Shown here: positions 5,182-47,763 of the stretch, one piece after another
Position numbering within the stretch: the first letter of the stretch is position 1
How the letters are laid out: each line of letters begins with the position of its first letter
Source: Bacillales bacterium
GTDB lineage: Bacteria > Bacillota_I > Bacilli_A > RFN20 > CAG-449
Direction of reading: 5' to 3'
DNA: 64,000 nt
Assembly: GCA_029006735.1 (NCBI GenBank)
Contig: JAQXGN010000037.1
Coordinates: 9,894-73,893, forward strand
The notes under the pieces: model-generated
What the model saw: only the letters and a program-made list of their open reading frames with translations
What the model was told of the DNA's origin: nothing
Databases searched by the model: none
Made by a program: the position numbers and the translations under genes

Positions 5182-6039
5182 ATGCAGCAAAAAAGTGTAC
5201 ATTGGTTTCCTGGGCATATGCAAAAAGCAATGCGGGAGATTGAAGAAAAATTAAAATTAATTGATATAGTGATTGAAATTGTTGATGCAAGAGCCCCAAA
5301 AAGTAGTAAAAATAAGTTTTTGGAAAGATTAACAAAATCAAAAAAAAGAATTATTGTAATGTCTAAAAAGGATTTAGCAGATCCAAACTTATTAAGATTA
5401 TGGGAAGAAAAATATAAAAATGACGGATATTATCCTGTAGCGTGTGATTTAAATAATAATCAAGATATCAAGAATATTTTAAATGCAATTCAATTTATTG
5501 GAAAAGATAAGATGGATAGAGATATTCGTCGAGGATTAAAACCTCAACCAATAAGAATTATGATTATTGGTATTCCAAATGTGGGAAAGTCTACATTGAT
5601 TAATAGATTATCAAAAAGAGGTGCAGCAAGTATTGCGAATACTCCTGGACATACTCGTTCTCAACAATGGATTAGAGTTAATAAAACATTAGAATTACTT
5701 GATACTCCAGGAATTTTACCTCCTCATTATGATGATAAAATGGAAGCAATTCATTTGGCGTTAATTGGATCAATGAAGATAGAAAATATTTCAGAGACTG
5801 AATTGCTTGAAGAATTATTAAAAATATTAATAAACAAACACGCGGATAAATTAATGGAAAGATATGACTTATCTAAGGAAGATTTATCATCAAATAATAA
5901 TATCTTTTTAGGAATCGCAAAAAGAAGAGGATTGTTATTATCGCAAGGACAATATGATTTAGAAAAAGCAGAATTGCTTTTATTAAAAGAGTTTAAAGAG
6001 GGATTAATTGTTAAAACAATTATTGATGAATTATGTTAG
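5182..6039 (+). CDS. rbgA: Ribosome biogenesis GTPase A (YlqF/RbgA)
   Basis: HWFPGHMQKA start region and circularly permuted GTPase motifs (MSKKDL, GIPNVGKST, DTPG). AGGAGA lies 5 nt before the ATG at 5182. It sits in the rplS-ylqF-rnhB synteny block. Confidence 0.9.
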   Translation: MQQKSVHWFPGHMQKAMREIEEKLKLIDIVIEIVDARAPKSSKNKFLERLTKSKKRIIVMSKKDLADPNLLRLWEEKYKNDGYYPVACDLNNNQDIKNILNAIQFIGKDKMDRDIRRGLKPQPIRIMIIGIPNVGKSTLINRLSKRGAASIANTPGHTRSQQWIRVNKTLELLDTPGILPPHYDDKMEAIHLALIGSMKIENISETELLEELLKILINKHADKLMERYDLSKEDLSSNNNIFLGIAKRRGLLLSQGQYDLEKAELLLLKEFKEGLIVKTIIDELC

Positions 6040-6662
6040 ATTATGAAAAACCAATATTTGAACAAGGTTATACAAAGATAGTTGGGTGTGATGAAGCAGG
6101 TAGAGGACCTTTATGTGGACCAGTTGTATGTGCTAGTTGCATTCTTCCAATAGGGTATCAAAATGAATTGATTAATGATTCAAAAAAATTGACCGATAAA
6201 AAAAGAAGAATTCTTTTTGATGAAATTAAAAAAGTAGCTATTGCATATGCAATTGTTGCAATTTCTCCAGAAGAAATAGATAAAATCAATATTTATGAAG
6301 CATCAAGAAAAGGGATGACTCTAGCAATTAAACAAATGGAAGTAAAACCTGATTATATTATTACTGATTGTATGCCATTATTTGGATTTGATGGAATTCC
6401 TCAAGAAAACTTGGTGAAAGGTGATGCTAAAGCAATGTGTGTTGCTGCTGCTTCGATTTTAGCTAAAGTAACTAGAGATAAAATTATGGAGGAAATTGAC
6501 AAACAATATCCACAATATAATATAAAGAAACATAAAGGTTATCCAACTAAGGAACATATTGAATTATTAAATAAATATGGCCCAATAAAAGGATTGTATC
6601 GATATTCTTATAATCCAGTTAAACAAGCAACACAAATAAAAATTTCTTTACTAGAAGATTAG
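6033..6662 (+). CDS. rnhB: Ribonuclease HII
   Basis: GCDEAGRGPLCGPVV catalytic motif. It overlaps the rbgA stop by 7 nt. Confidence 0.92.
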   Translation: MLDYEKPIFEQGYTKIVGCDEAGRGPLCGPVVCASCILPIGYQNELINDSKKLTDKKRRILFDEIKKVAIAYAIVAISPEEIDKINIYEASRKGMTLAIKQMEVKPDYIITDCMPLFGFDGIPQENLVKGDAKAMCVAAASILAKVTRDKIMEEIDKQYPQYNIKKHKGYPTKEHIELLNKYGPIKGLYRYSYNPVKQATQIKISLLED

Positions 6663-9786: not shown

Positions 9787-10012
9787 AAAACTAATATTTA
9801 AAAAAGAAAAAATTCTCAATTAAATATTTGTTATAAAGTTGATGAGGGTAGAATATTATTCTTATAGAAAATATTCAGTCAACTTAGTGGATGAAAGATC
9901 AAAAAATTAAAGAATATCATAATTATAATAAAGTCTTTTTAGTATTTTTATTAATACTATATAAATTTTTGATTAATCCATCTTTTTACCCTTAATGTTA
10001 GGAGGAAAAAAT

Positions 10013-35451: not shown

Positions 35452-36213
35452 ATGAGATGGTGTTTTGATTTACCAATCGGTTTAGCAATTGCAGATGCAA
35501 TTATCGCACTTATTCTTGCATGTTTTATTATGGTTTTTATCATTCGCAAGATCAATCGTGTTGCAGCATACATTTTTTATCCTTCATGCGTATGTTTGAT
35601 GTTTGTTGGATATGTGTTTACTATGCCTTTACTTCTAATTACTTCATCAGTTGTTTTAGTGATTGGAATGAGTTTGATCTTGTTTATTAATGCATCCGAA
35701 TTCAGATATTTATTTTTGAAAAACGCTACTTTAAAAACAACTAGAAAAGATAAAAACACAAAGAATTCTACTGAATTAATGTATAAAGCAATTGATGACG
35801 CAGTAAAGAGTTTATCACGTACAAAAACAGGCGCGATTATTACATTTGAAAAAGCACAATCTTTAGATAATGTTATAAAAAATGGTACTGCAATTAATGC
35901 ACCAGTTAGTGCAGAATTATTAATGACTATTTTTTATCCTGGAACAAGATTACATGATGGTGCAGTTGTAATAAGAGGTAATATGATTATTTCTGCTTCA
36001 GTTTATTATACTCCTACAACAAGAGCGTTAACTGGAAAATATGGTTCAAGACATAGAGCAGCAGTTGGTATTTCGGAAATTTCTGATGCAGTTACTGTTG
36101 TTGTTAGTGAGGAAACAGGACGTATATCTTTAGCATATAAAGCAAAATTAGAACCTACTTCATTAGATACATTCTTAGATGATTTTGTTTATTTAATGAA
36201 TGAAAGAGATTAA
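35452..36213 (+). CDS. cdaA: Diadenylate cyclase CdaA (membrane-anchored DAC domain)
   Basis: Three N-terminal TM helices, then the DAC motifs TGAIITFE, HDGAVVI, and GSRHRAA. Confidence 0.9.
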   Translation: MRWCFDLPIGLAIADAIIALILACFIMVFIIRKINRVAAYIFYPSCVCLMFVGYVFTMPLLLITSSVVLVIGMSLILFINASEFRYLFLKNATLKTTRKDKNTKNSTELMYKAIDDAVKSLSRTKTGAIITFEKAQSLDNVIKNGTAINAPVSAELLMTIFYPGTRLHDGAVVIRGNMIISASVYYTPTTRALTGKYGSRHRAAVGISEISDAVTVVVSEETGRISLAYKAKLEPTSLDTFLDDFVYLMNERD

Positions 36214-36216
36214 AAT

Positions 36217-36933
36217 ATGAAATTTTTATTAGTTAATGATGATGGTTTTGGTGCAGAAGGCATCGTTTTAGTTGAAGAAGTTTTAAAAAAATTTGGAGAA
36301 GTTTTTGTCGTGGCTCCTAAATATGTCCAATCTGGAAAATCATGTTCATTAAGTTATGGAAAAGAAGAAAGTTTTATTAAGTATGATGATCATCATTATG
36401 CTTTAGATAGTGTTCCAACTGGATGTGTTTCATTTGGGTTATATGGAATTAATCAAAATATTGACATTGTTGTTTCTGGATGCAATAATGGTCCAAATCT
36501 TAGTATTGATACGATGTATTCTGGTACAGTAGGAGCATGTTATGAAGCATTATTTAATGGAGTACCTGCGATTGCTTTATCCACCTCAAAATATAATGAT
36601 TTTACTAATGTTAAATCACATATTAGTATTTTACTAAAATATATTTTAGATAATAAATTGTATTCTAAAGATTATTTATTAAACTGTAATTTTCATAAAG
36701 GGGATAATTTTAAAGGTATTAGGTTTACTTTTCTTCACCGAAATGTTTTAAGATATAATTTTCATGTTGGAGAAGATAGCCTTGTTCATGATAGATATAG
36801 TTTATTTGATAATGTGAAAAGAGGTAGTGATGTATATGCAGTTGAACATGGATATATTTCAATAACTCCTTTAACTTCATCTACATTTAATGTTGCTTCG
36901 TTAGATGATTTAAAAAAGAAAATAAAATCATAG
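36217..36933 (+). CDS. surE: 5'/3'-nucleotidase SurE
   Basis: MKFLLVNDDGFGAEGI N-terminus and GCNNGPNL. It starts 4 nt after the cdaA stop. Confidence 0.85.
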   Translation: MKFLLVNDDGFGAEGIVLVEEVLKKFGEVFVVAPKYVQSGKSCSLSYGKEESFIKYDDHHYALDSVPTGCVSFGLYGINQNIDIVVSGCNNGPNLSIDTMYSGTVGACYEALFNGVPAIALSTSKYNDFTNVKSHISILLKYILDNKLYSKDYLLNCNFHKGDNFKGIRFTFLHRNVLRYNFHVGEDSLVHDRYSLFDNVKRGSDVYAVEHGYISITPLTSSTFNVASLDDLKKKIKS

Positions 36934-36995: not shown

Positions 36996-37071
36996 TGGTG
37001 GGTACTGAGAGGATCGAACTCCCGACCTTCTGTACGTCAAACAGATGCTCTCCCAGCTGAGCTAAATACCC
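36996..37071 (-). tRNA. tRNA-Val (anticodon GAC), CCA encoded
   Basis: Hand-folded 76-nt cloverleaf. Acceptor GGGTATT/AGTACCC, D-arm GCTC/GAGC, anticodon stem TCTGT/ACAGA with loop TTGACGT, T-arm GGGAG-TTCGATC-CTCTC, discriminator A, and 3' CCA. Confidence 0.9.
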
Positions 37072-37122: not shown

Positions 37123-37255
37123 TAATTTTATTTAAAATAAATAAGGTTTTTTAGATTTTTCTTAAGGTTTATATAATATAATGTGTCATTTAAAATAATT
37201 CTAGTTTACAATAATGTTAATAAGTTTTTTGCGTGATTGAAAGGATTAATAATCA

Positions 37256-38887
37256 ATGAAATTGCCACCTATTTTTATTTCTTTAGCAGATCTTTTTGAG
37301 AAAAATGGATTTGATTTATATATGGTTGGAGGAACAACTAGAGATTTTCTTTTAGGAAAAGAATTAGTTGATTTTGATTTTGCTACAAATGCCACTATCG
37401 ATGAAATGAAATGCTTTATGGAAATAAGTGAAAACTTTAAATCAATTGGTAGTATGACTTGTAAATATCAAGGATCAAAGATTGATATTACAACCTTAAG
37501 AAAAGAAAAAGAATACATTGATTATCGTCATCCTAGTATTGTTGAATTTGTTAATGATCCAGAAATTGATAGTGAAAGAAGAGATTTAACGATTAATGCA
37601 TTATATTTAGATAATAAAGGAAATCTATATGATTTTCATGGTGGATTAAATGATTTACATAATCATATTATCAAAATGATAAATGATCCTTTAGTTAGGT
37701 TTAATGAAGATCCATTAAGGTTATTAAGGGTAATCCGCTTTTCACTTATTTTAGATTTTGTTATTGAAGATAGTCTTGAACAAATTATTAAAGAAAATGT
37801 CGGTTTATTGAAAAAAATTAATTATATCAAAAGCCGAGAAGAGATCGATAAAATGATGAAATATAATGAAAATAAGGCAAGGAATTTATTAAGAAAATAT
37901 CATGTTGATCAAGTATTGCCAATCGTATTAAATAGCAAAAATCCATTGAACATTATTGATTTACATTGTGATACATTGACTAGAAATTTAAAAGATGATG
38001 AAAATTTTCTTAACTCTAATCTCCATATTGATTTAAATAAATTATACAAAGGCGAATACTTGTTGCAATGCTTCGCGGTCTTTATTTATTTAAAAGAGGG
38101 AGAATCTAGTTTTAAAAAAGCTAATGAATATATTGATAAATTTGATTATTTAATGAGTGAATATTCTCATTTGATTTCTCCAATTAGATCGTATAAAGAA
38201 TTAATTGATAATAAGTCTAAGGGTAAACTTTCTGCTTTGTTATCATTAGAAGAAGGAGAAATATTAGAAGGAAATATTGATAATATTGATTATTTTTATT
38301 CGCGTGGAGTAAGAATGATGACTTTAACTTGGAATTTTGAGAATTCTTTAGCATATCCCAATGATGTAATGCATAATCAAATTCAAAATGGTGGATTAAA
38401 AGAGTTAGGAATAAAAGCAATAAAGAGAATGAATGAATTAGGTATTATTATTGATGTATCACATTTAAATGATGATGGATTCTACGATGTAATTAAATAT
38501 TCGACTAAACCAATTGTTGCTTCACATAGTAATGCTCGTGAAGTACAAAATCGGGTGAGAAATCTAACTGATGATATGATTTTATTACTTCACAAAAATA
38601 AAGGGGTTATGGGAATTAATTATTGCCCTGATTTTGTTTCTAATAATAAAGGGAATCAAATTAAAGATTTAGTAAAGCATATCAAACATATAAAAGATTT
38701 AGGTTGTATTGATAATATTGCTTTAGGCTCTGACTTTGATGGAATACCAACTCCAAATGGATTAAATGATGCATCTAAATTACCAGAATTAATTAATGAA
38801 TTGAAAAATGCCGGATTTAGTACAAATGAAATTGATAAAATAACACATAAGAATTTCTTAAGAGTATTAAAAAATGTTTGCAAATAG
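37256..38887 (+). CDS. Fusion protein: class-II CCA-adding/poly(A)-polymerase-family nucleotidyltransferase head+neck (aa 1 to about 225) joined to a peptidase-M19 (renal-type) dipeptidase domain (about aa 230 to 543)
   Basis: Nucleotidyltransferase motifs GGTTRDFLLGKELVDFDF, RRDLTINA, and EDPLRLLRVIRF. M19 metal-ligand contexts DLHCDT, DVSH, ASHSNAR, and GSDFDG. It is a single uninterrupted ORF. Confidence 0.8.
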   Translation: MKLPPIFISLADLFEKNGFDLYMVGGTTRDFLLGKELVDFDFATNATIDEMKCFMEISENFKSIGSMTCKYQGSKIDITTLRKEKEYIDYRHPSIVEFVNDPEIDSERRDLTINALYLDNKGNLYDFHGGLNDLHNHIIKMINDPLVRFNEDPLRLLRVIRFSLILDFVIEDSLEQIIKENVGLLKKINYIKSREEIDKMMKYNENKARNLLRKYHVDQVLPIVLNSKNPLNIIDLHCDTLTRNLKDDENFLNSNLHIDLNKLYKGEYLLQCFAVFIYLKEGESSFKKANEYIDKFDYLMSEYSHLISPIRSYKELIDNKSKGKLSALLSLEEGEILEGNIDNIDYFYSRGVRMMTLTWNFENSLAYPNDVMHNQIQNGGLKELGIKAIKRMNELGIIIDVSHLNDDGFYDVIKYSTKPIVASHSNAREVQNRVRNLTDDMILLLHKNKGVMGINYCPDFVSNNKGNQIKDLVKHIKHIKDLGCIDNIALGSDFDGIPTPNGLNDASKLPELINELKNAGFSTNEIDKITHKNFLRVLKNVCK

Positions 38888-38953: not shown

Positions 38954-39616
38954 ATGAAGAATTTTAAAATCAATCAAATAGATTATCGCTATGTTTTAGT
39001 GGATACATATAAATCATTAAATTTAAATGAGTATGATTTAGCAGTTTTATTAGTTATTGATAATATTTTAAGAGAAGAACCAGTATTAGTAACTGCAGAA
39101 TTACTTGCATTAAAAATGAATATTGATGTTAAAGAATTAGATAATATCCTTGTTAGTTTAGTTAATCGAGGATTTTTAGAATATGTAAGTATAAGTAATA
39201 ATTCTTTATCTTTAGTTACATCTTTAAGACCAACATATAATCGCCTTCAAGAAAATTTTGTTCGTGGTATTGTTACAAGCGTTCATTTAGAGGATTCAAG
39301 AGTAAAAAAAGAAGAAATTTCTAATATTTTTGCCTCTTTTGAAAGAGAAATGAAAAGAACGTTAACTCCAATTGAATTAGAAAAAATCCGTGAGTGGGTA
39401 TCTCAAGGAATAAAAGAAGAAATGATTATTGATTGTTTACGTGAAGTAATGAGTAAATCAAAAAGAGTATCTTTAAGAGCAGTTGATCGCGCGATTATCA
39501 AAAGAATGACATCAAATGATCGAGAAAAAGAAGGGTATTCTGCAATAAATGATAAATGGAAACAAGATATTGAAAACACTATCGATATTGCAAATACAAA
39601 ATGGACAGATGAATAA
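38954..39616 (+). CDS. dnaD: DnaD-domain replication initiation/remodelling protein
   Basis: Winged-helix-like N-terminus and C-terminal DnaD repeat region (LTPIELEKIREWV). dnaD-nth synteny. Confidence 0.7.
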   Translation: MKNFKINQIDYRYVLVDTYKSLNLNEYDLAVLLVIDNILREEPVLVTAELLALKMNIDVKELDNILVSLVNRGFLEYVSISNNSLSLVTSLRPTYNRLQENFVRGIVTSVHLEDSRVKKEEISNIFASFEREMKRTLTPIELEKIREWVSQGIKEEMIIDCLREVMSKSKRVSLRAVDRAIIKRMTSNDREKEGYSAINDKWKQDIENTIDIANTKWTDE

Positions 39617-40244
39617 ATTAGATAGAGTTAAATTAATTTCTTCTTATTTTGATGAGATATTACCCAATGCAAAATGCGAATTAGAGTATTCTAAACCATA
39701 CGAATTAGTTATCGCAGTAATGTTATCAAGTCAAACTACAGATAAGAGTGTAAATAAAGTTACTAGGGTATTATTTTCAAAATATCCAACTTTAAAGATG
39801 CTTGCAAATGCGAAAGTGGAAGATATTTTTGAGATTATTAAAACTTTAGGTTTAGCATCTACTAAAGCAAAGAATGTTAAAGGAATCGCTTTAGAATTAT
39901 TAGAAAAATATAATGGTGAAGTACCACATAATTTTTCATATTTAGTTTCTCTTCCTGGAGTAGGAAGAAAAACTAGTAATGTTATTTTAGCAGAGCTATT
40001 TAATGAGCCAGTAATCGCGGTTGATACGCATGTGGAAAGAGTATCAAAAAGATTATATTTAGCTTCTGAAAAAGATAATGTAATTCAAGTAGAAGATAAA
40101 TTAATGAGAATTTTCCCTCAAGATAAACATGTTCTTACCCATCATCAAATGATCCATTTTGGAAGATATTTTTGTAAGAGTCAAAATCCTAAATGTGCAG
40201 AATGTAGATTAACTTCTATTTGTCGATATTTTAAAAATAAGTAA
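39609..40244 (+). CDS. nth: Endonuclease III
   Basis: HhH-GPD motif LPGVGRKTSNVIL and 4Fe-4S cluster loop CKSQNPKCAECRLTSIC. The ATG at 39609 overlaps the dnaD stop. Confidence 0.9.
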   Translation: MNKLDRVKLISSYFDEILPNAKCELEYSKPYELVIAVMLSSQTTDKSVNKVTRVLFSKYPTLKMLANAKVEDIFEIIKTLGLASTKAKNVKGIALELLEKYNGEVPHNFSYLVSLPGVGRKTSNVILAELFNEPVIAVDTHVERVSKRLYLASEKDNVIQVEDKLMRIFPQDKHVLTHHQMIHFGRYFCKSQNPKCAECRLTSICRYFKNK

Positions 40245-42558
40245 ATATTAAATCGTATGAATCACCTTTTAATGAGTAGTTTTCTTTAAAGGTTTCTACG
40301 ATTTTTATTTCGTATATACCTGGGTGGGGCAAATTGCATTCGACTTCATTTGATTCAATAAATAATTCTTGAAAATAGTCTTCATTAGAAATTGTAATTA
40401 AATATCCCTTATTTCCATAAAAATTAGAGTATATATTATCTTCTTTTATAGTATCTAATATGGAAATATAAATTGAGTTTTCCATTTGATAAACATTAAC
40501 ATTATTGATTGGATTCAATATGGGATAAGGTAATACTTCATTAGGTATATCTTCTTTTTTATAATAGGCAAAACTTATGTATTTGCTTGGAGTGTATTCA
40601 TTAGGAAGATAAGCTTTTTCTTGATGTTTTACAACAAAAACTTTGGTAAGATTTTCGGAAATATTAAAGTGTTCATTTTTATTAGAAACATAAGAAATAA
40701 TTAAATTAAATAATCTTTTTGCGATTTTTTTTGTTTCGTCTTTATTAGCAAAATAAGTATGTTTATTTTTTATTGGTTTATCAAATCCAGTCCATATGGA
40801 TACAGTATTTGAAGAAGAGTATCCACTAAACCAGATATCTTTATCAGCGTTATTAGGGAAATTGTATTTTTTTATGGTATTTATATCATATCCACCAGTT
40901 CCTGTTTTTCCAGCGATTATTATATTATTTGGTTTGGCTATTCCAATATTGTAATAATTTCCATCAATCATTCTTTCTAATGAAGAAGTGATGATATCTG
41001 CGCTTTCATTGGAAATGACTCTTTTTTCTTCATCAGTATTTTCATAAAGTATTTTATTTGTTTCTATATCAATAATTCTTTTAATAGTTGTTGGAGTATA
41101 GTATTTACCATGGTTTCTTAACATAGAGTATGCTCCAGCAATGTTTATTGGATTAGTTCCATAAGTCATTCCTCCAATTGCATAGGAATAACTAAATGGA
41201 CCTTCATCCATAATATTTAAATCTTCTAAATAAGAGATTACTTTTTCTTTTCCAATTTTTTTTACTACTTGTTCTAATACTTTAATTGCACAAGTGTTTC
41301 TGGAATATCCAAGAGCTTCTATTAGGGATAATTTACCTAAGTATTGATGATCAACGTTATTAATATTTAGCGATGTTCCTGGATAGTAGTAAGGTTCATC
41401 AATTAATGTGGTCATTTCGTTATAATGTAAATATTCAACTCCTAAGGCGTAAGAATAAATTGGTTTAATGATTGAAGCAGGATTTGTTTTCATGTCATAG
41501 CTATGATTAAATAGTTTTTTACCATGATAATTTCTTCCACCAATTATCCCTGAAATATGGCCTTTTTCTTTAATAACTGCAGCCCCTATTTGCATATTAT
41601 CATTATTAAAGGTGATAATATCTCCTTCTTGAATTCTATCAAGATAAGACTGTAATGAAGTATCTAGATAAGTTTCAATTTTAACAGGATAAGAAAAAAT
41701 ATCATAGTTTAATATTTTACTAGCTTCTTTATAGACAACATCTAAATAAGCTTGATATTTTGTTGCTTCAAAATTATTGCTATTTTTATTAAGTAAAGAA
41801 TTTACTTCGATAGATGATGCTAAATTGTATTCGTTTTGTGATATTACTTGATGGGTTAACATAGCCTTTAGAACGATATTTTTTCTTTTTTCTAGATTAT
41901 CGATATGCTTATAAGGATCATATTGGCTAGGTGATTTTACTAATGATACTAAGGCGCATATTTCAACTAGATTTAGCTCTTGTACATTTTTATCAAAAAA
42001 TTTTTTAGCAGCATAACAGATTCCGGGAACACTTTTTTCAAAATATACACGATTGAAATAATGTTCTAGAATCTCTTCTTTCGTTAATTCTTTTTCTAAT
42101 TTTAAAGAAAGATACGCTTCTTTAATTTTTCTTTGATAACTTTTTTCATTCGTTAAAAAAAGATTTTTAATCAATTGTTGAGTAATAGTTGAACCTCCTT
42201 GAATGGAATTATGAGGGTTAATATTATTTATTAAAGAGATAATAACTCTTTTTGGATTAATTCCTTTATGGTAATAAAATTCTGCATCTTCAATTGATAA
42301 TAACGCATCAATAAGGAGTGGAGGAAGATCTTCATATTTTATGTAATAATCTTCATCGTTTCCTAAAGTTTCAATTACATTATTGGAGGAATCATATATT
42401 TTTGAATATTTTGGTGAAACAATAGATTCAATAACTGGATCATTTAAATTATTGATAGTGATAAGAAAAAACGTTCCTAGTCCAATAAAAACTAAAAACG
42501 TGAAAATACAAATAAGAGAAATAAACTTGGTTATAAATTTAAAAATATTATTTTTCAT
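40231..42558 (-). CDS. ponA: Bifunctional class A penicillin-binding protein (PBP1)
   Basis: GT51 motifs EDAEFYYHKGIN and GGSTITQQLIKN. Transpeptidase motifs SIIK, SRN, and KTGT. ponA-recU synteny. The C-terminal 120 aa or so is extra and uncharacterised. Confidence 0.9.
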   Translation of the reverse strand: MKNNIFKFITKFISLICIFTFLVFIGLGTFFLITINNLNDPVIESIVSPKYSKIYDSSNNVIETLGNDEDYYIKYEDLPPLLIDALLSIEDAEFYYHKGINPKRVIISLINNINPHNSIQGGSTITQQLIKNLFLTNEKSYQRKIKEAYLSLKLEKELTKEEILEHYFNRVYFEKSVPGICYAAKKFFDKNVQELNLVEICALVSLVKSPSQYDPYKHIDNLEKRKNIVLKAMLTHQVISQNEYNLASSIEVNSLLNKNSNNFEATKYQAYLDVVYKEASKILNYDIFSYPVKIETYLDTSLQSYLDRIQEGDIITFNNDNMQIGAAVIKEKGHISGIIGGRNYHGKKLFNHSYDMKTNPASIIKPIYSYALGVEYLHYNEMTTLIDEPYYYPGTSLNINNVDHQYLGKLSLIEALGYSRNTCAIKVLEQVVKKIGKEKVISYLEDLNIMDEGPFSYSYAIGGMTYGTNPINIAGAYSMLRNHGKYYTPTTIKRIIDIETNKILYENTDEEKRVISNESADIITSSLERMIDGNYYNIGIAKPNNIIIAGKTGTGGYDINTIKKYNFPNNADKDIWFSGYSSSNTVSIWTGFDKPIKNKHTYFANKDETKKIAKRLFNLIISYVSNKNEHFNISENLTKVFVVKHQEKAYLPNEYTPSKYISFAYYKKEDIPNEVLPYPILNPINNVNVYQMENSIYISILDTIKEDNIYSNFYGNKGYLITISNEDYFQELFIESNEVECNLPHPGIYEIKIVETFKENYSLKGDSYDLIFTYF

Positions 42559-43150
42559 GGAAATATACCTTGTCAATAACATCTAAAAAATTTAGACGGG
42601 GAATAAACCCTTGTTCAACAAAGTATCCATATTTTTTTACATCTTGATAAGTGATGGATTTTCTTTCTTTTAATTCATATCTATCTATTACTTGCTGAGC
42701 GTCTAGAATATAGACTTCATCTAATGCTTTAAAATAGATCATAAAGAAAGCTATACCACCATGGAGTAATACTTTTTTTAAATGCTTTATTTGGTGAAGA
42801 GGAATATTGTTGAAGGATAAAGATGTTTTTGATAATGTTTCTTTACATTCAAAATCTATGTATTTTCCTCTATATACACCATTGTAATCAGTGTTGGATT
42901 GCTTTTCGAAGTATGCTTCTAGTATCTTTCCTTTTTTATAATCGGTTTTAATGATTTTAATTGGAGTAGGGCGCTTGGTTATAATCGCTCTAAGATTATC
43001 ATCATAATAGGAACAAGATAAAGATACTGCATGCTCAAAATCCATTCCACGATTAGCAGCATTTATTGCTTCTTTTTTTGAAGTTTTTTGCTCGTTCATG
43101 GATACTTGTTTTGACGAATCGATTTTTTTCTTATTTGGATAATTAATCAT
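42548..43150 (-). CDS. recU: Holliday junction resolvase RecU
   Basis: The N-terminus MINYPN...NRGM resembles B. subtilis RecU. It sits immediately upstream of ponA, overlapping by 11 nt. Confidence 0.88.
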   Translation of the reverse strand: MINYPNKKKIDSSKQVSMNEQKTSKKEAINAANRGMDFEHAVSLSCSYYDDNLRAIITKRPTPIKIIKTDYKKGKILEAYFEKQSNTDYNGVYRGKYIDFECKETLSKTSLSFNNIPLHQIKHLKKVLLHGGIAFFMIYFKALDEVYILDAQQVIDRYELKERKSITYQDVKKYGYFVEQGFIPRLNFLDVIDKVYFHEK

Positions 43151-47419: not shown

Positions 47420-47763
47420 CTTTGATCTGGATAATTGCTGGCGAAATTTATTTCGTTAGAGGAAAGTCCATGCTCGCACCATCTGTGATGATGGTAGTGT
47501 TTGTGCCAAGAGAAAAAATAATCTTGGGTAGGTGGGAGCACCTAACGGCAGAAAGAAACCTAAGTCGTAAGATATGGTCTATTTCTTGAAAGTGCCACAG
47601 TGACGTAGTTTATATGAAAGTATAAAGTGGAACGCGGTAAACCCCTCAAGCGAGAAACCTAAATTTGGTAAGGGAAGTCTAAGTGAAGAAACGAATTTAA
47701 CTTGACATACTTCGGTATAGATAAATAATTATCCTCGACAAAACATGGCTTACAGGATCAAAG
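47420..47763 (+). ncRNA. rnpB: RNase P RNA (type B, Firmicutes-like)
   Basis: P4 strands GAGGAAAGTCCATGCTCGCAC and ACAAAACATGGCTTACAG. P1 pairing ctttgatc-tg (47420-47429) with caggatcaaag (47753-47763). P2 pairing ggataatt with aattatcc. Length is about 344 nt. Confidence 0.9.

Follow-up and report, generated by a model that had tools for sequence, protein, structure and literature searches.

Gene content of the locus and continuity of the fusion gene

The stretch of DNA analysed here (the window) comprises 64,000 nucleotides of a Bacillales bacterium genome (assembly GCA_029006735.1, contig JAQXGN010000037.1, positions 9,894 to 73,893 of the forward strand), and all positions below are those of the window. 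At 37256..38887 (+) the window was found to contain an open reading frame (ORF) of 543 aa with an ATG start and no interruption (coordinates include the stop codon), in which the head and neck of a CCA-adding type tRNA nucleotidyltransferase (NTase) are followed by a complete peptidase M19 (dipeptidase) domain. A preceding sequence-only reading had claimed one unbroken frame of this length and an NTase head and neck joined in frame to a complete M19 domain; the ORF bore out the first claim, and Pfam, structure alignments and Foldseek the second. The gene order in the window was found to be MgtC, Ham1/RdgB, a DAC-domain cyclase of the CdaA type, SurE, tRNA-Val(GAC) on the minus strand and the fusion, followed by DnaD, Nth, a class A penicillin-binding protein (PBP) and RecU, the last two on the minus strand. 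Residue conservation was scored in two alignments, one of 22 and one of 80 fusions, to which the word invariant refers; L numbers denote compared genomic loci and P numbers compared proteins or protein clusters.

The fusion is a real and conserved architecture. When the ORF was checked for a frameshift or stop, the same DNA, with 100% identity, was found in the independent assemblies SRR21376879 and SRR21376905 (loci L098 and L099), and dnaD and nth were again present 3′ of it in both. The combination of PF01743 and PF01244, whose spread had been proposed for checking in domain-architecture databases, was found in proteins of 537-566 aa forming about 85 clusters at the 90% identity level, with identities down to 41%; the frame is continuous in all of them and the linker conserved, and a stand-alone M19 gene beside a short NTase gene was not found at the dnaD locus. 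The explanation that assembly or gene calling had joined two adjacent genes is opposed by each of these results and was considered to have a negligible probability. The source databases labelled the fusion clusters merely as 'membrane dipeptidase'. The AlphaFold2 model of the full fusion, built with 80 homologues, gave summary scores of 92.9 for the predicted local distance difference test (pLDDT) and 0.88 for the predicted template modelling score (pTM), with an ordered linker. By Foldseek, each half matched solved structures separately, and no solved structure was found to combine both domains. The sequence-only reading had known of no described function for this architecture, and no publication on the fusion was retrieved by the literature search, which likewise returned nothing on head-and-neck-only NTases or on a decay series of M19.

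The entries P0060, P0065, P0083, P0084, P0109 and P0111 were considered as shorter fusion variants and were rejected, being N-terminally cut fragments of fusions. P0140 contained an odd tail and looks frameshifted. The 560-aa gene call P0068/P0061 contained an N-terminal extension of 29 residues (L005 10001-10087) overlapping the divergent tRNA-Val (9931-10006); its true start is probably the Met aligned to residue 1 of the other fusions, giving about 531 aa.

Nucleotidyltransferase core

Residues 1-228 (37256..37939, +) were found to contain a class II CCA-type head and neck core without body and tail, as identified by PF01743, a partial PRK13299 match, alignment to 1MIV and Foldseek. In Pfam, the PolyA_pol head (PF01743) was found at residues 21-139 (E 1.5e-28), followed by a partial, sub-threshold match to the neck (PF12627) at residues 167-217, and PF13735 of the body and tail was not detected in the fusion protein. 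The best NCBIfam match was the Firmicute CCA equivalog PRK13299, of which model positions 17-242 of 396 were covered and 243-396 were unmatched. The N-terminal half aligned nearly without gaps to residues 11-204 of the Bacillus stearothermophilus CCA enzyme (1MIV) and to the Planococcus CCA enzyme (6IBP), with motifs A-E and the flexible-loop region in register, and Foldseek gave a root-mean-square deviation (rmsd) of 1.8-2.2 A over about 220 columns against 1MIV/6QY6.

Motif A (YMVGGTTRDFLLGKELVDFD; 37319..37378, +) contained the catalytic carboxylates D39 and D41. The residues G25, G26, R29 and D41 were found to be invariant, also in the forms with a degenerate M19 domain described below, and D39 was conserved in at least 90% of the 80 fusions. 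It was followed by the basic/acidic (B/A) motif and the flexible loop at full length (TTLRKEKEYIDYRHPSIVEF; 37490..37549, +), with invariant R82, E84 and R91, and the interval between motifs A and B contained no deletion relative to 1MIV or 6IBP. Motif B (ERRDLTINAL; 37574..37603, +), with the RRD that discriminates the ribose, contained invariant R108, R109, D110 and N114, again including the degenerate forms, followed by motif C (DFHGGLNDLHNHIIKMI; 37631..37681, +) with invariant D126 and D133 and with G130 conserved in at least 90%. The nucleotide template of motif D, of the form EDxxR (NEDPLRLLRVIRF; 37703..37741, +), contained E151, D152, R155, R158 and R161, invariant in the active and the degenerate forms alike. 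The motif E region (YIKSREEIDKMMKY; 37823..37864, +) aligned to the matching helix of 1MIV and 6IBP and contained invariant E196 and K199 conserved in at least 90%. The end of the neck and the linker to the barrel (YHVDQVLPIVLNSKNPL; 37901..37951, +) were modelled with a pLDDT of about 75-95 and no disordered segment, and it is approximately here that the stand-alone short NTases end.

Motifs A, B and D, which the sequence-only reading had listed in this order, were thus present as GGTTRD...DFD, RRDLTINA (R108-N114) and EDPLRLLR, and the catalytic residues of this half, whose possible degeneration had been raised, were intact and conserved across the 80 homologues. The loss of the flexible loop is a mark of CC-adding enzymes (PMC7014341). 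The full-length loop, together with the B/A motif, therefore points to a core of the CCA-adding or A-adding type rather than the CC-adding type, and the N-terminal half is predicted to be one. The head, the motifs and the loop of the CCA family were all found in the protein, and the body, the tail and an equivalog score above threshold were absent; the fusion is accordingly filed as a variant of the CCA family and not as a standard member.

M19 dipeptidase half

Residues 231-539 (37946..38872, +) were found to contain a complete peptidase M19 domain of the renal-dipeptidase type, a TIM barrel of the Lmo2462 subfamily, as identified by PF01244, the structures 3NEH/3LU2 and Foldseek. The Peptidase_M19 match (PF01244) covered profile positions 6-318 of 319 with E 5.5e-94 and 315 bits against a cut-off of 26. 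This half aligned over its whole length to Listeria Lmo2462 (3NEH/3LU2) with E 1e-36, and Foldseek gave a TM score of 0.91 and an rmsd of 2.2-2.3 A against 3LU2/3NEH and an rmsd of 2.0 A against 1ITQ. Lmo2462 has been crystallised with a dipeptide mimic.

The barrel opens with the HxD metal-ligand motif DLHCD (H237, D239; 37958..37972, +), in which D235, H237 and D239 were invariant in the 80 fusions and were lost in the degenerate forms. This was followed by the invariant E332 (38249..38251, +), a putative bridging metal ligand, and by H403 (DVSH), H424 (ASHS) and R435-N436 (38462..38560, +), all invariant, as was R428. The catalytic Asp region D493-F-D495 of GSDFDG (38732..38740, +) contained invariant G491, D493, D495 and G496. 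The TLTWN motif contained a Trp, as in the Lmo2462 subgroup. The residue R435 lies at H424+11 in RVRNL. We take it to be the equivalent of Arg230 of human DPEP1, which binds the free C-terminal carboxylate of the substrate, and the ligand or catalytic roles of H237, D239, E332, H403, H424 and D493 are likewise presumed from the alignment to 3NEH/1ITQ.

The four M19 motifs named by the sequence-only reading (DLHCD, DVSH, ASHS and GSDFDG) were all recovered with the predicted metal and catalytic residues, and on alignment the ligands, the catalytic Asp and the Arg were found to be intact and invariant in the 80 fusions, with no degeneration of this half. Profile, metal-ligand and catalytic residues, carboxylate Arg and fold all agreed with membership of M19, and the M19 half is predicted to be an active dipeptidase. 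As the carboxylate binder R435 is kept, an ordinary dipeptide is favoured as substrate over an aminoacyl- or peptidyl-nucleotide.

Orthologous cores with an inactive M19 domain

An exhaustive phmmer search with the N-terminal half yielded an additional class of 443-505 aa in which the Pfam match to M19 was weak and partial. In the alignment, this class retained all NTase motifs, but its M19 part lacked the HxD motif, the TLTWN segment, the two His ligands and GSDFDG. In the pseudo-dipeptidase fusions P0143, P0145, P0150, P0152, P0154 and P0162, all metal ligands were found to be missing together with 40-100 residues of M19, and P0145 (locus L096, 6001-7497) was located at the same dnaD-nth-ponA-recU locus as the fusions. 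The pairwise identity of the degenerate forms was 52% in the N-terminal halves and 26% in the C-terminal halves, against 45% and 51%, respectively, in the active fusions. Two shorter proteins contained only a remnant of M19, namely P0161 (332 aa; E 1e-5 to residues 251-329 of the window protein) and P0142 (359 aa; E 0.005 to residues 300-371). In the tree of the core, the degenerate P0162 was found to be sister to the active fusion P0080 with 98% bootstrap, and other degenerate forms interleaved with the active P0085.

Orthologous cores without an M19 domain

Species-representative genomes were scanned with an alignment of the N-terminal half, and the statements made here rest on the matches listed. 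The best matches, with 42-51% identity, were metagenome-assembled genomes (MAGs) containing an NTase ORF of 202-238 aa (L010-L015, L020), and M19 fusions were not among the species-representative matches listed. These short enzymes, here called minis, were found to end just past the neck, where the linker of the fusion begins, followed by dnaD-nth-recU within 8-14 bp 3′ of the gene (checked in L010 and L013). The L010 mini was located at 5983-6639, and the matches in L011-L015 and L020 at about 6001. In Pfam, these proteins matched the head alone or the head and the first part of the neck. With the L010 mini as query, the best 120 clusters were all of 213-252 aa and contained PF01743 only, and 2,482 proteins were found at E<=1e-20; clusters P0287-P0405 belong to this family. 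One mini is named 'CCA tRNA nucleotidyltransferase' by NCBI; as far as the literature search showed, the minis appear to be an uncharacterised family. Other Bacilli MAGs (L018, L021, L023) contained enzymes of 354-360 aa at the dnaD locus, which keep a reduced body and tail (PF13735).

The orthologues form a graded series, in which the M19 domain passes from active to dead, to remnant and to absent, on a constant NTase core and at a constant locus. Short NTases consisting of head and neck only were also found outside Bacilli, in a Doudnabacteria MAG (L019 5884-6624, 246 aa), a Saccharibacteria MAG (L050, 236 aa) and a Clostridia MAG (L044 5947-6675, 242 aa), and loss of body and tail may be recurrent in small genomes.

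Gene neighbourhood

The gene downstream of the fusion was found to be dnaD (38954..39616, +; Pfam DnaD_N and DnaB_2), located 67 nt from it in conserved synteny, and no terminator-like site was detected between the two in the terminator scan. It was followed by nth of the endonuclease III family (39549..40244, +; PF00730), also syntenic, and by the convergent end of the block at 40231..43150 (-), which contained the class A PBP gene (40231-42582) and recU (42548-43150). The order fusion-dnaD-nth-(ponA)-recU recurred in fusions only 43-48% identical to that of the window (L005, L007, L009). The dnaD-nth locus, with the NTase gene in every case directly upstream of dnaD, was common to the fusions (the window and L005-L009), the degenerate form of L096, the minis of L010-L015 and L020 and the 354-360 aa enzymes of L018, L021 and L023, and sharing this locus with body- and tail-bearing enzymes supports positional orthology with conventional cca. 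In B. subtilis, dnaD-nth with ponA-recU lies in the same chromosomal region as cca, with which the position of the fusion is compatible as that of a housekeeping cca.

Upstream of the fusion, the divergent tRNA-Val(GAC) (36996..37071, -) was found to encode its CCA, as the sequence-only reading had stated, and this neighbour was kept beside the fusions of L005, L007 and L009. All four neighbouring tRNA-Val genes inspected encode CCA, which is in line with a role of the enzyme in repair. The best sigma-70-like promoter match, TTTAGA-16-TATAAT (37150..37177, +), is a consensus match only, such sites being not enriched over shuffled sequences.

The longest nth ORF overlapped the end of dnaD by 68 nt (39549-39616), with a similar overlap in relatives, and its real start may be a later in-frame Met (…MNKLDRV…). 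The diadenylate cyclase gene (DAC domain with N-terminal membrane segments) was followed directly by surE at 35452-36933, and in L007, too, the gene next to the fusion on its upstream side was a DAC gene. A bacterial RNase P RNA of class B (292 bits) was found at 47423-47757 (+) and fits a low-GC Firmicute; the GC content of the window was about 28%, and many of the related MAGs were from rumen or gut samples. Together with the names of these MAGs, the RNase P class and the GC content assign the organism to uncultured low-GC Bacilli or to Erysipelotrichaceae-like bacteria.

Stand-alone M19 relatives

The nearest stand-alone M19 relatives were found in Erysipelotrichaceae with 50-57% identity, as ordinary single-domain genes at a different conserved locus (recR ... 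M19 ... NUDIX-MBL-CYTH-NADK-mutS). The M19 tree, taken as unrooted, placed the main stand-alone clade apart from the fusions with 98% bootstrap. The stand-alone M19 closest to the fusion clade, P0114, adjoined a gene of PF00144 and not a mini NTase. An origin of the fusion from a neighbouring pair of cca and M19 genes was rejected, as the stand-alone M19 genes lie at different loci and no 'split' variant was found. At L093 5060-6960, P0114 is located directly downstream of the PF00144 gene (beta-lactamase/DD-peptidase family), and this adjacency hints at a role in the turnover of D-amino-acid or cell-wall peptides.

Comparison with known systems

The Firmicute class II CCA enzyme (B. subtilis/Geobacillus stearothermophilus Cca, 1MIV; 6IBP; PRK13299) shares with the fusion the fold of head and neck, motifs A-E, the B/A motif and the full flexible loop, with about 36-41% identity over about 190 residues, nearly without gaps, and the dnaD-nth-ponA-recU neighbourhood. 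The fusion core differs in that it stops after the neck, without PF13735 and with only a partial PF12627, and is followed by an M19 barrel of 315 residues instead. The stand-alone minis of uncultured gut and rumen Bacilli (e.g., L010) have a core 42-51% identical to that of the window protein, the same end point of the NTase and the same locus upstream of dnaD, but they stop at 202-238 aa, whereas the window protein runs on into M19.

The M19 family (Lmo2462, 3NEH/3LU2; Streptomyces Sco3058, 3ID7; human DPEP1, 1ITQ) contains the same complete barrel, HxD/Glu/His/His ligands, catalytic Asp and carboxylate Arg; the window protein differs in bearing an N-terminal NTase extension of 228 residues. 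The E. coli-type multifunctional CCA protein (PRK10885), in which a class II head and neck is followed by a metal-dependent hydrolase (a C-terminal HD phosphohydrolase), is a loose precedent. The HD domain there belongs to the helical body region, with tRNA 3′ ends as its target, whereas the M19 domain of the fusion, a TIM barrel, is unrelated to it and is predicted to act on peptides. The CCA enzyme of Romanomermis culicivorax, which serves armless tRNAs, resembles the fusion in that the lost interaction between elbow and C-terminus is compensated in the catalytic core (PMC7730189); there it is the substrate that lost the elbow while the enzyme keeps its C-terminal domains, whereas the window enzyme itself lost them.

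Functional interpretation

The explanation that fits best, and to which somewhat better than even confidence is given, is that the fusion represents two independent enzymes on one chain, namely a core-only cca orthologue and an active dipeptidase. The core would add or repair C74-C75-A76 on tRNAs without a body and tail anchor, and the barrel would cleave free dipeptides, with L-Xaa-D-Xaa as the probable type, as is the case for characterised relatives. Co-expression and probably a rigid two-domain fold would result from the fusion, and M19 would be dispensable for the NTase function. Judged from the orthologues, the NTase core is the conserved and selected element and M19 an optional one. Since orthologous cores persist with the M19 domain dead or absent, M19 is unlikely to be an obligatory substitute for tRNA binding or an obligatory partner in coupled chemistry. 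The sequence-only reading had proposed that the barrel replaces the body and tail as a new tRNA-binding module; the absence of body and tail was upheld, and the need for such a module was not, since minis and dead-M19 orthologues keep the NTase core. Class II enzymes bind tRNA weakly, with constants that are often unmeasurable, and act distributively (PMC9728577), and the nematode CCA enzyme compensates for the lost elbow contacts within its catalytic core (PMC7730189). Together, these properties make an anchor-less core plausible for 3′-end repair, particularly if the tRNA genes encode CCA.

Several observations weigh against two independent enzymes with a core-only cca orthologue. The PRK13299 score of 184 bits was below the cut-off of 290, which is expected from the missing C-terminal half. 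In neighbour-joining trees of the core, the deep nodes had less than 50% bootstrap, the fusions were never monophyletic and minis were interleaved with them, with support only for local groupings such as P0162 with P0080, so that either a fusion-first or a mini-first history is possible. A dead M19 domain was found to persist in at least six clusters at 50% identity, which could reflect a retained structural role, and the pTM of 0.88 implies, as far as the model goes, a fixed interface and possibly a functional coupling. Within the 64-kb window and the examined flanks, no second NTase and no separate body and tail ORF were found, and a canonical cca elsewhere in the genome is possible.

The persistence of the dead domain and the predicted interface bear on the proposal that M19 is a recruited structural module (one that stands in as tRNA anchor, serves dimerisation or stabilises the protein), the fusion being functionally integrated in the branch of the window protein. 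With the body and tail missing, the tRNA must be held by something (PMC3925840), and AlphaFold predicts a confident single rigid body with an ordered linker. The dead domains are kept at a total length of 443-505 aa at the dnaD locus. The fused M19 halves were also less acidic than most stand-alone relatives (mean net charge -2, stand-alone forms -14, degenerate forms +4), a comparison confounded by a GC content of 29% against 41-43%. The charge shift may reflect AT-rich composition, as a value of -5 was obtained for the stand-alone P0114, whose genome has 24% GC; the sole shared protein available as a control, MutS, shifted little between the fusion and stand-alone groups. In the barrel, no motif for RNA binding was found. 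In more than 100 mini clusters without a C-terminal domain, every NTase motif is present and the length is stable, whereas the dead M19 drifts to 26% identity and shrinks to remnants, as expected from erosion and not from a selected scaffold. A structural recruitment of this kind was regarded as unlikely overall, and a helper or scaffold role of M19 may exist in the branch of the window protein.

A common substrate of both activities, such as an aminoacyl- or peptidyl-nucleotide or a conjugate of nucleotide and peptide, had also been suggested by the sequence-only reading; the two active sites would then act on it in sequence. Nothing speaks for this apart from the covalent bond between the domains and their predicted rigid arrangement. 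The orthologues with an intact NTase and a dead or absent M19 speak against it, the M19 half keeps the free-carboxylate Arg and the active site of stand-alone dipeptidases from ordinary peptide and cell-wall contexts, R435 thereby arguing for an ordinary dipeptide, and the EDxxR template of the NTase is the standard selector of CTP and ATP. This suggestion was considered very improbable.

The sub-threshold score bears on the possibility that housekeeping CCA addition is not the task of the core, which would instead perform unrestricted tailing of RNA 3′ ends (poly(A)- or poly(C)-like), act as a partial A-adding enzyme or be a relic, with a canonical cca elsewhere. In NCBIfam, the other CCA and PcnB models were likewise below their cut-offs, and pcnB models were also among the matches; paralogous NTases exist, as P0146, P0147 and P0166 contain at least two NTase heads. 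Experiments in which domains were swapped between CCA enzyme and poly(A) polymerase of E. coli reportedly showed that the C-terminal region serves as the anchor by which addition is limited to three nucleotides. The positional orthology with body- and tail-bearing enzymes at the dnaD locus opposes this possibility, Firmicute CCA enzymes, and not PcnB, were the best matches by family and by structure, and the flexible loop and B/A motif for the switch from C to A are intact and invariant (PMC7014341). The lack of a second NTase in the window or flanks points the same way, as does, weakly, the finding that none of the seven mini-bearing genomes occurred twice among the 80 best NTase loci listed. 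The possibility was judged distinctly unlikely.

A wider reading builds on the two-enzyme explanation and is put forward tentatively, as possible rather than probable. In a clade of uncultured gut and rumen Bacilli, and possibly in some bacteria of the candidate phyla radiation, a class II enzyme of head and neck only would be the sole CCA-adding enzyme; the window protein would represent this anchor-less enzyme in linkage with a dipeptidase, a passenger whose step-by-step decay would be preserved among the relatives. In models of class II CCA addition, the body and tail hold and measure the tRNA. If the sole-enzyme reading is true, this textbook anchor would be dispensable in vivo. A large natural family without body and tail at a housekeeping cca locus, in which all catalytic elements are conserved, would provide a ready-made test of what the core can do alone. 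The main interest lies in the implied spread of anchor-less CCA enzymes, which on comparison of sequences appear to be widespread, rather than in the fusion itself. The M19 series, set against a partner that stays constant, clearly illustrates from nature how a domain is gained and eroded in streamlined genomes. Through the 'membrane dipeptidase' naming and the sub-threshold core, genomes containing the fusion may be scored as lacking cca.

Other nucleotidyltransferase architectures

The searches also returned other arrangements of the NTase core. P0169 (478 aa) contained the core followed by a different C-terminal partner, which by eye resembles a family 2 glycosyltransferase (…IVDDCSKD…DSDD…). 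P0146 (612 aa), P0147 (1453 aa) and P0166 (893 aa) each contained two or three PolyA_pol heads in Pfam, and P0153 (1455 aa) contained four NTase-matched stretches by phmmer. In P0146, a mini-like head precedes a full CCA enzyme that includes an HD domain, and SLH domains were additionally present in P0147; these four proteins represent merged gene calls or else unusual architectures. Paired class II NTase genes a few kb apart were found in a Holosporales MAG (L024, 4590-5198 and 7121-7699) and in a Spirochaete MAG (L030, 3204-3770 on the minus strand and 6001-6648), and these pairs may represent CC-adding and A-adding enzymes.

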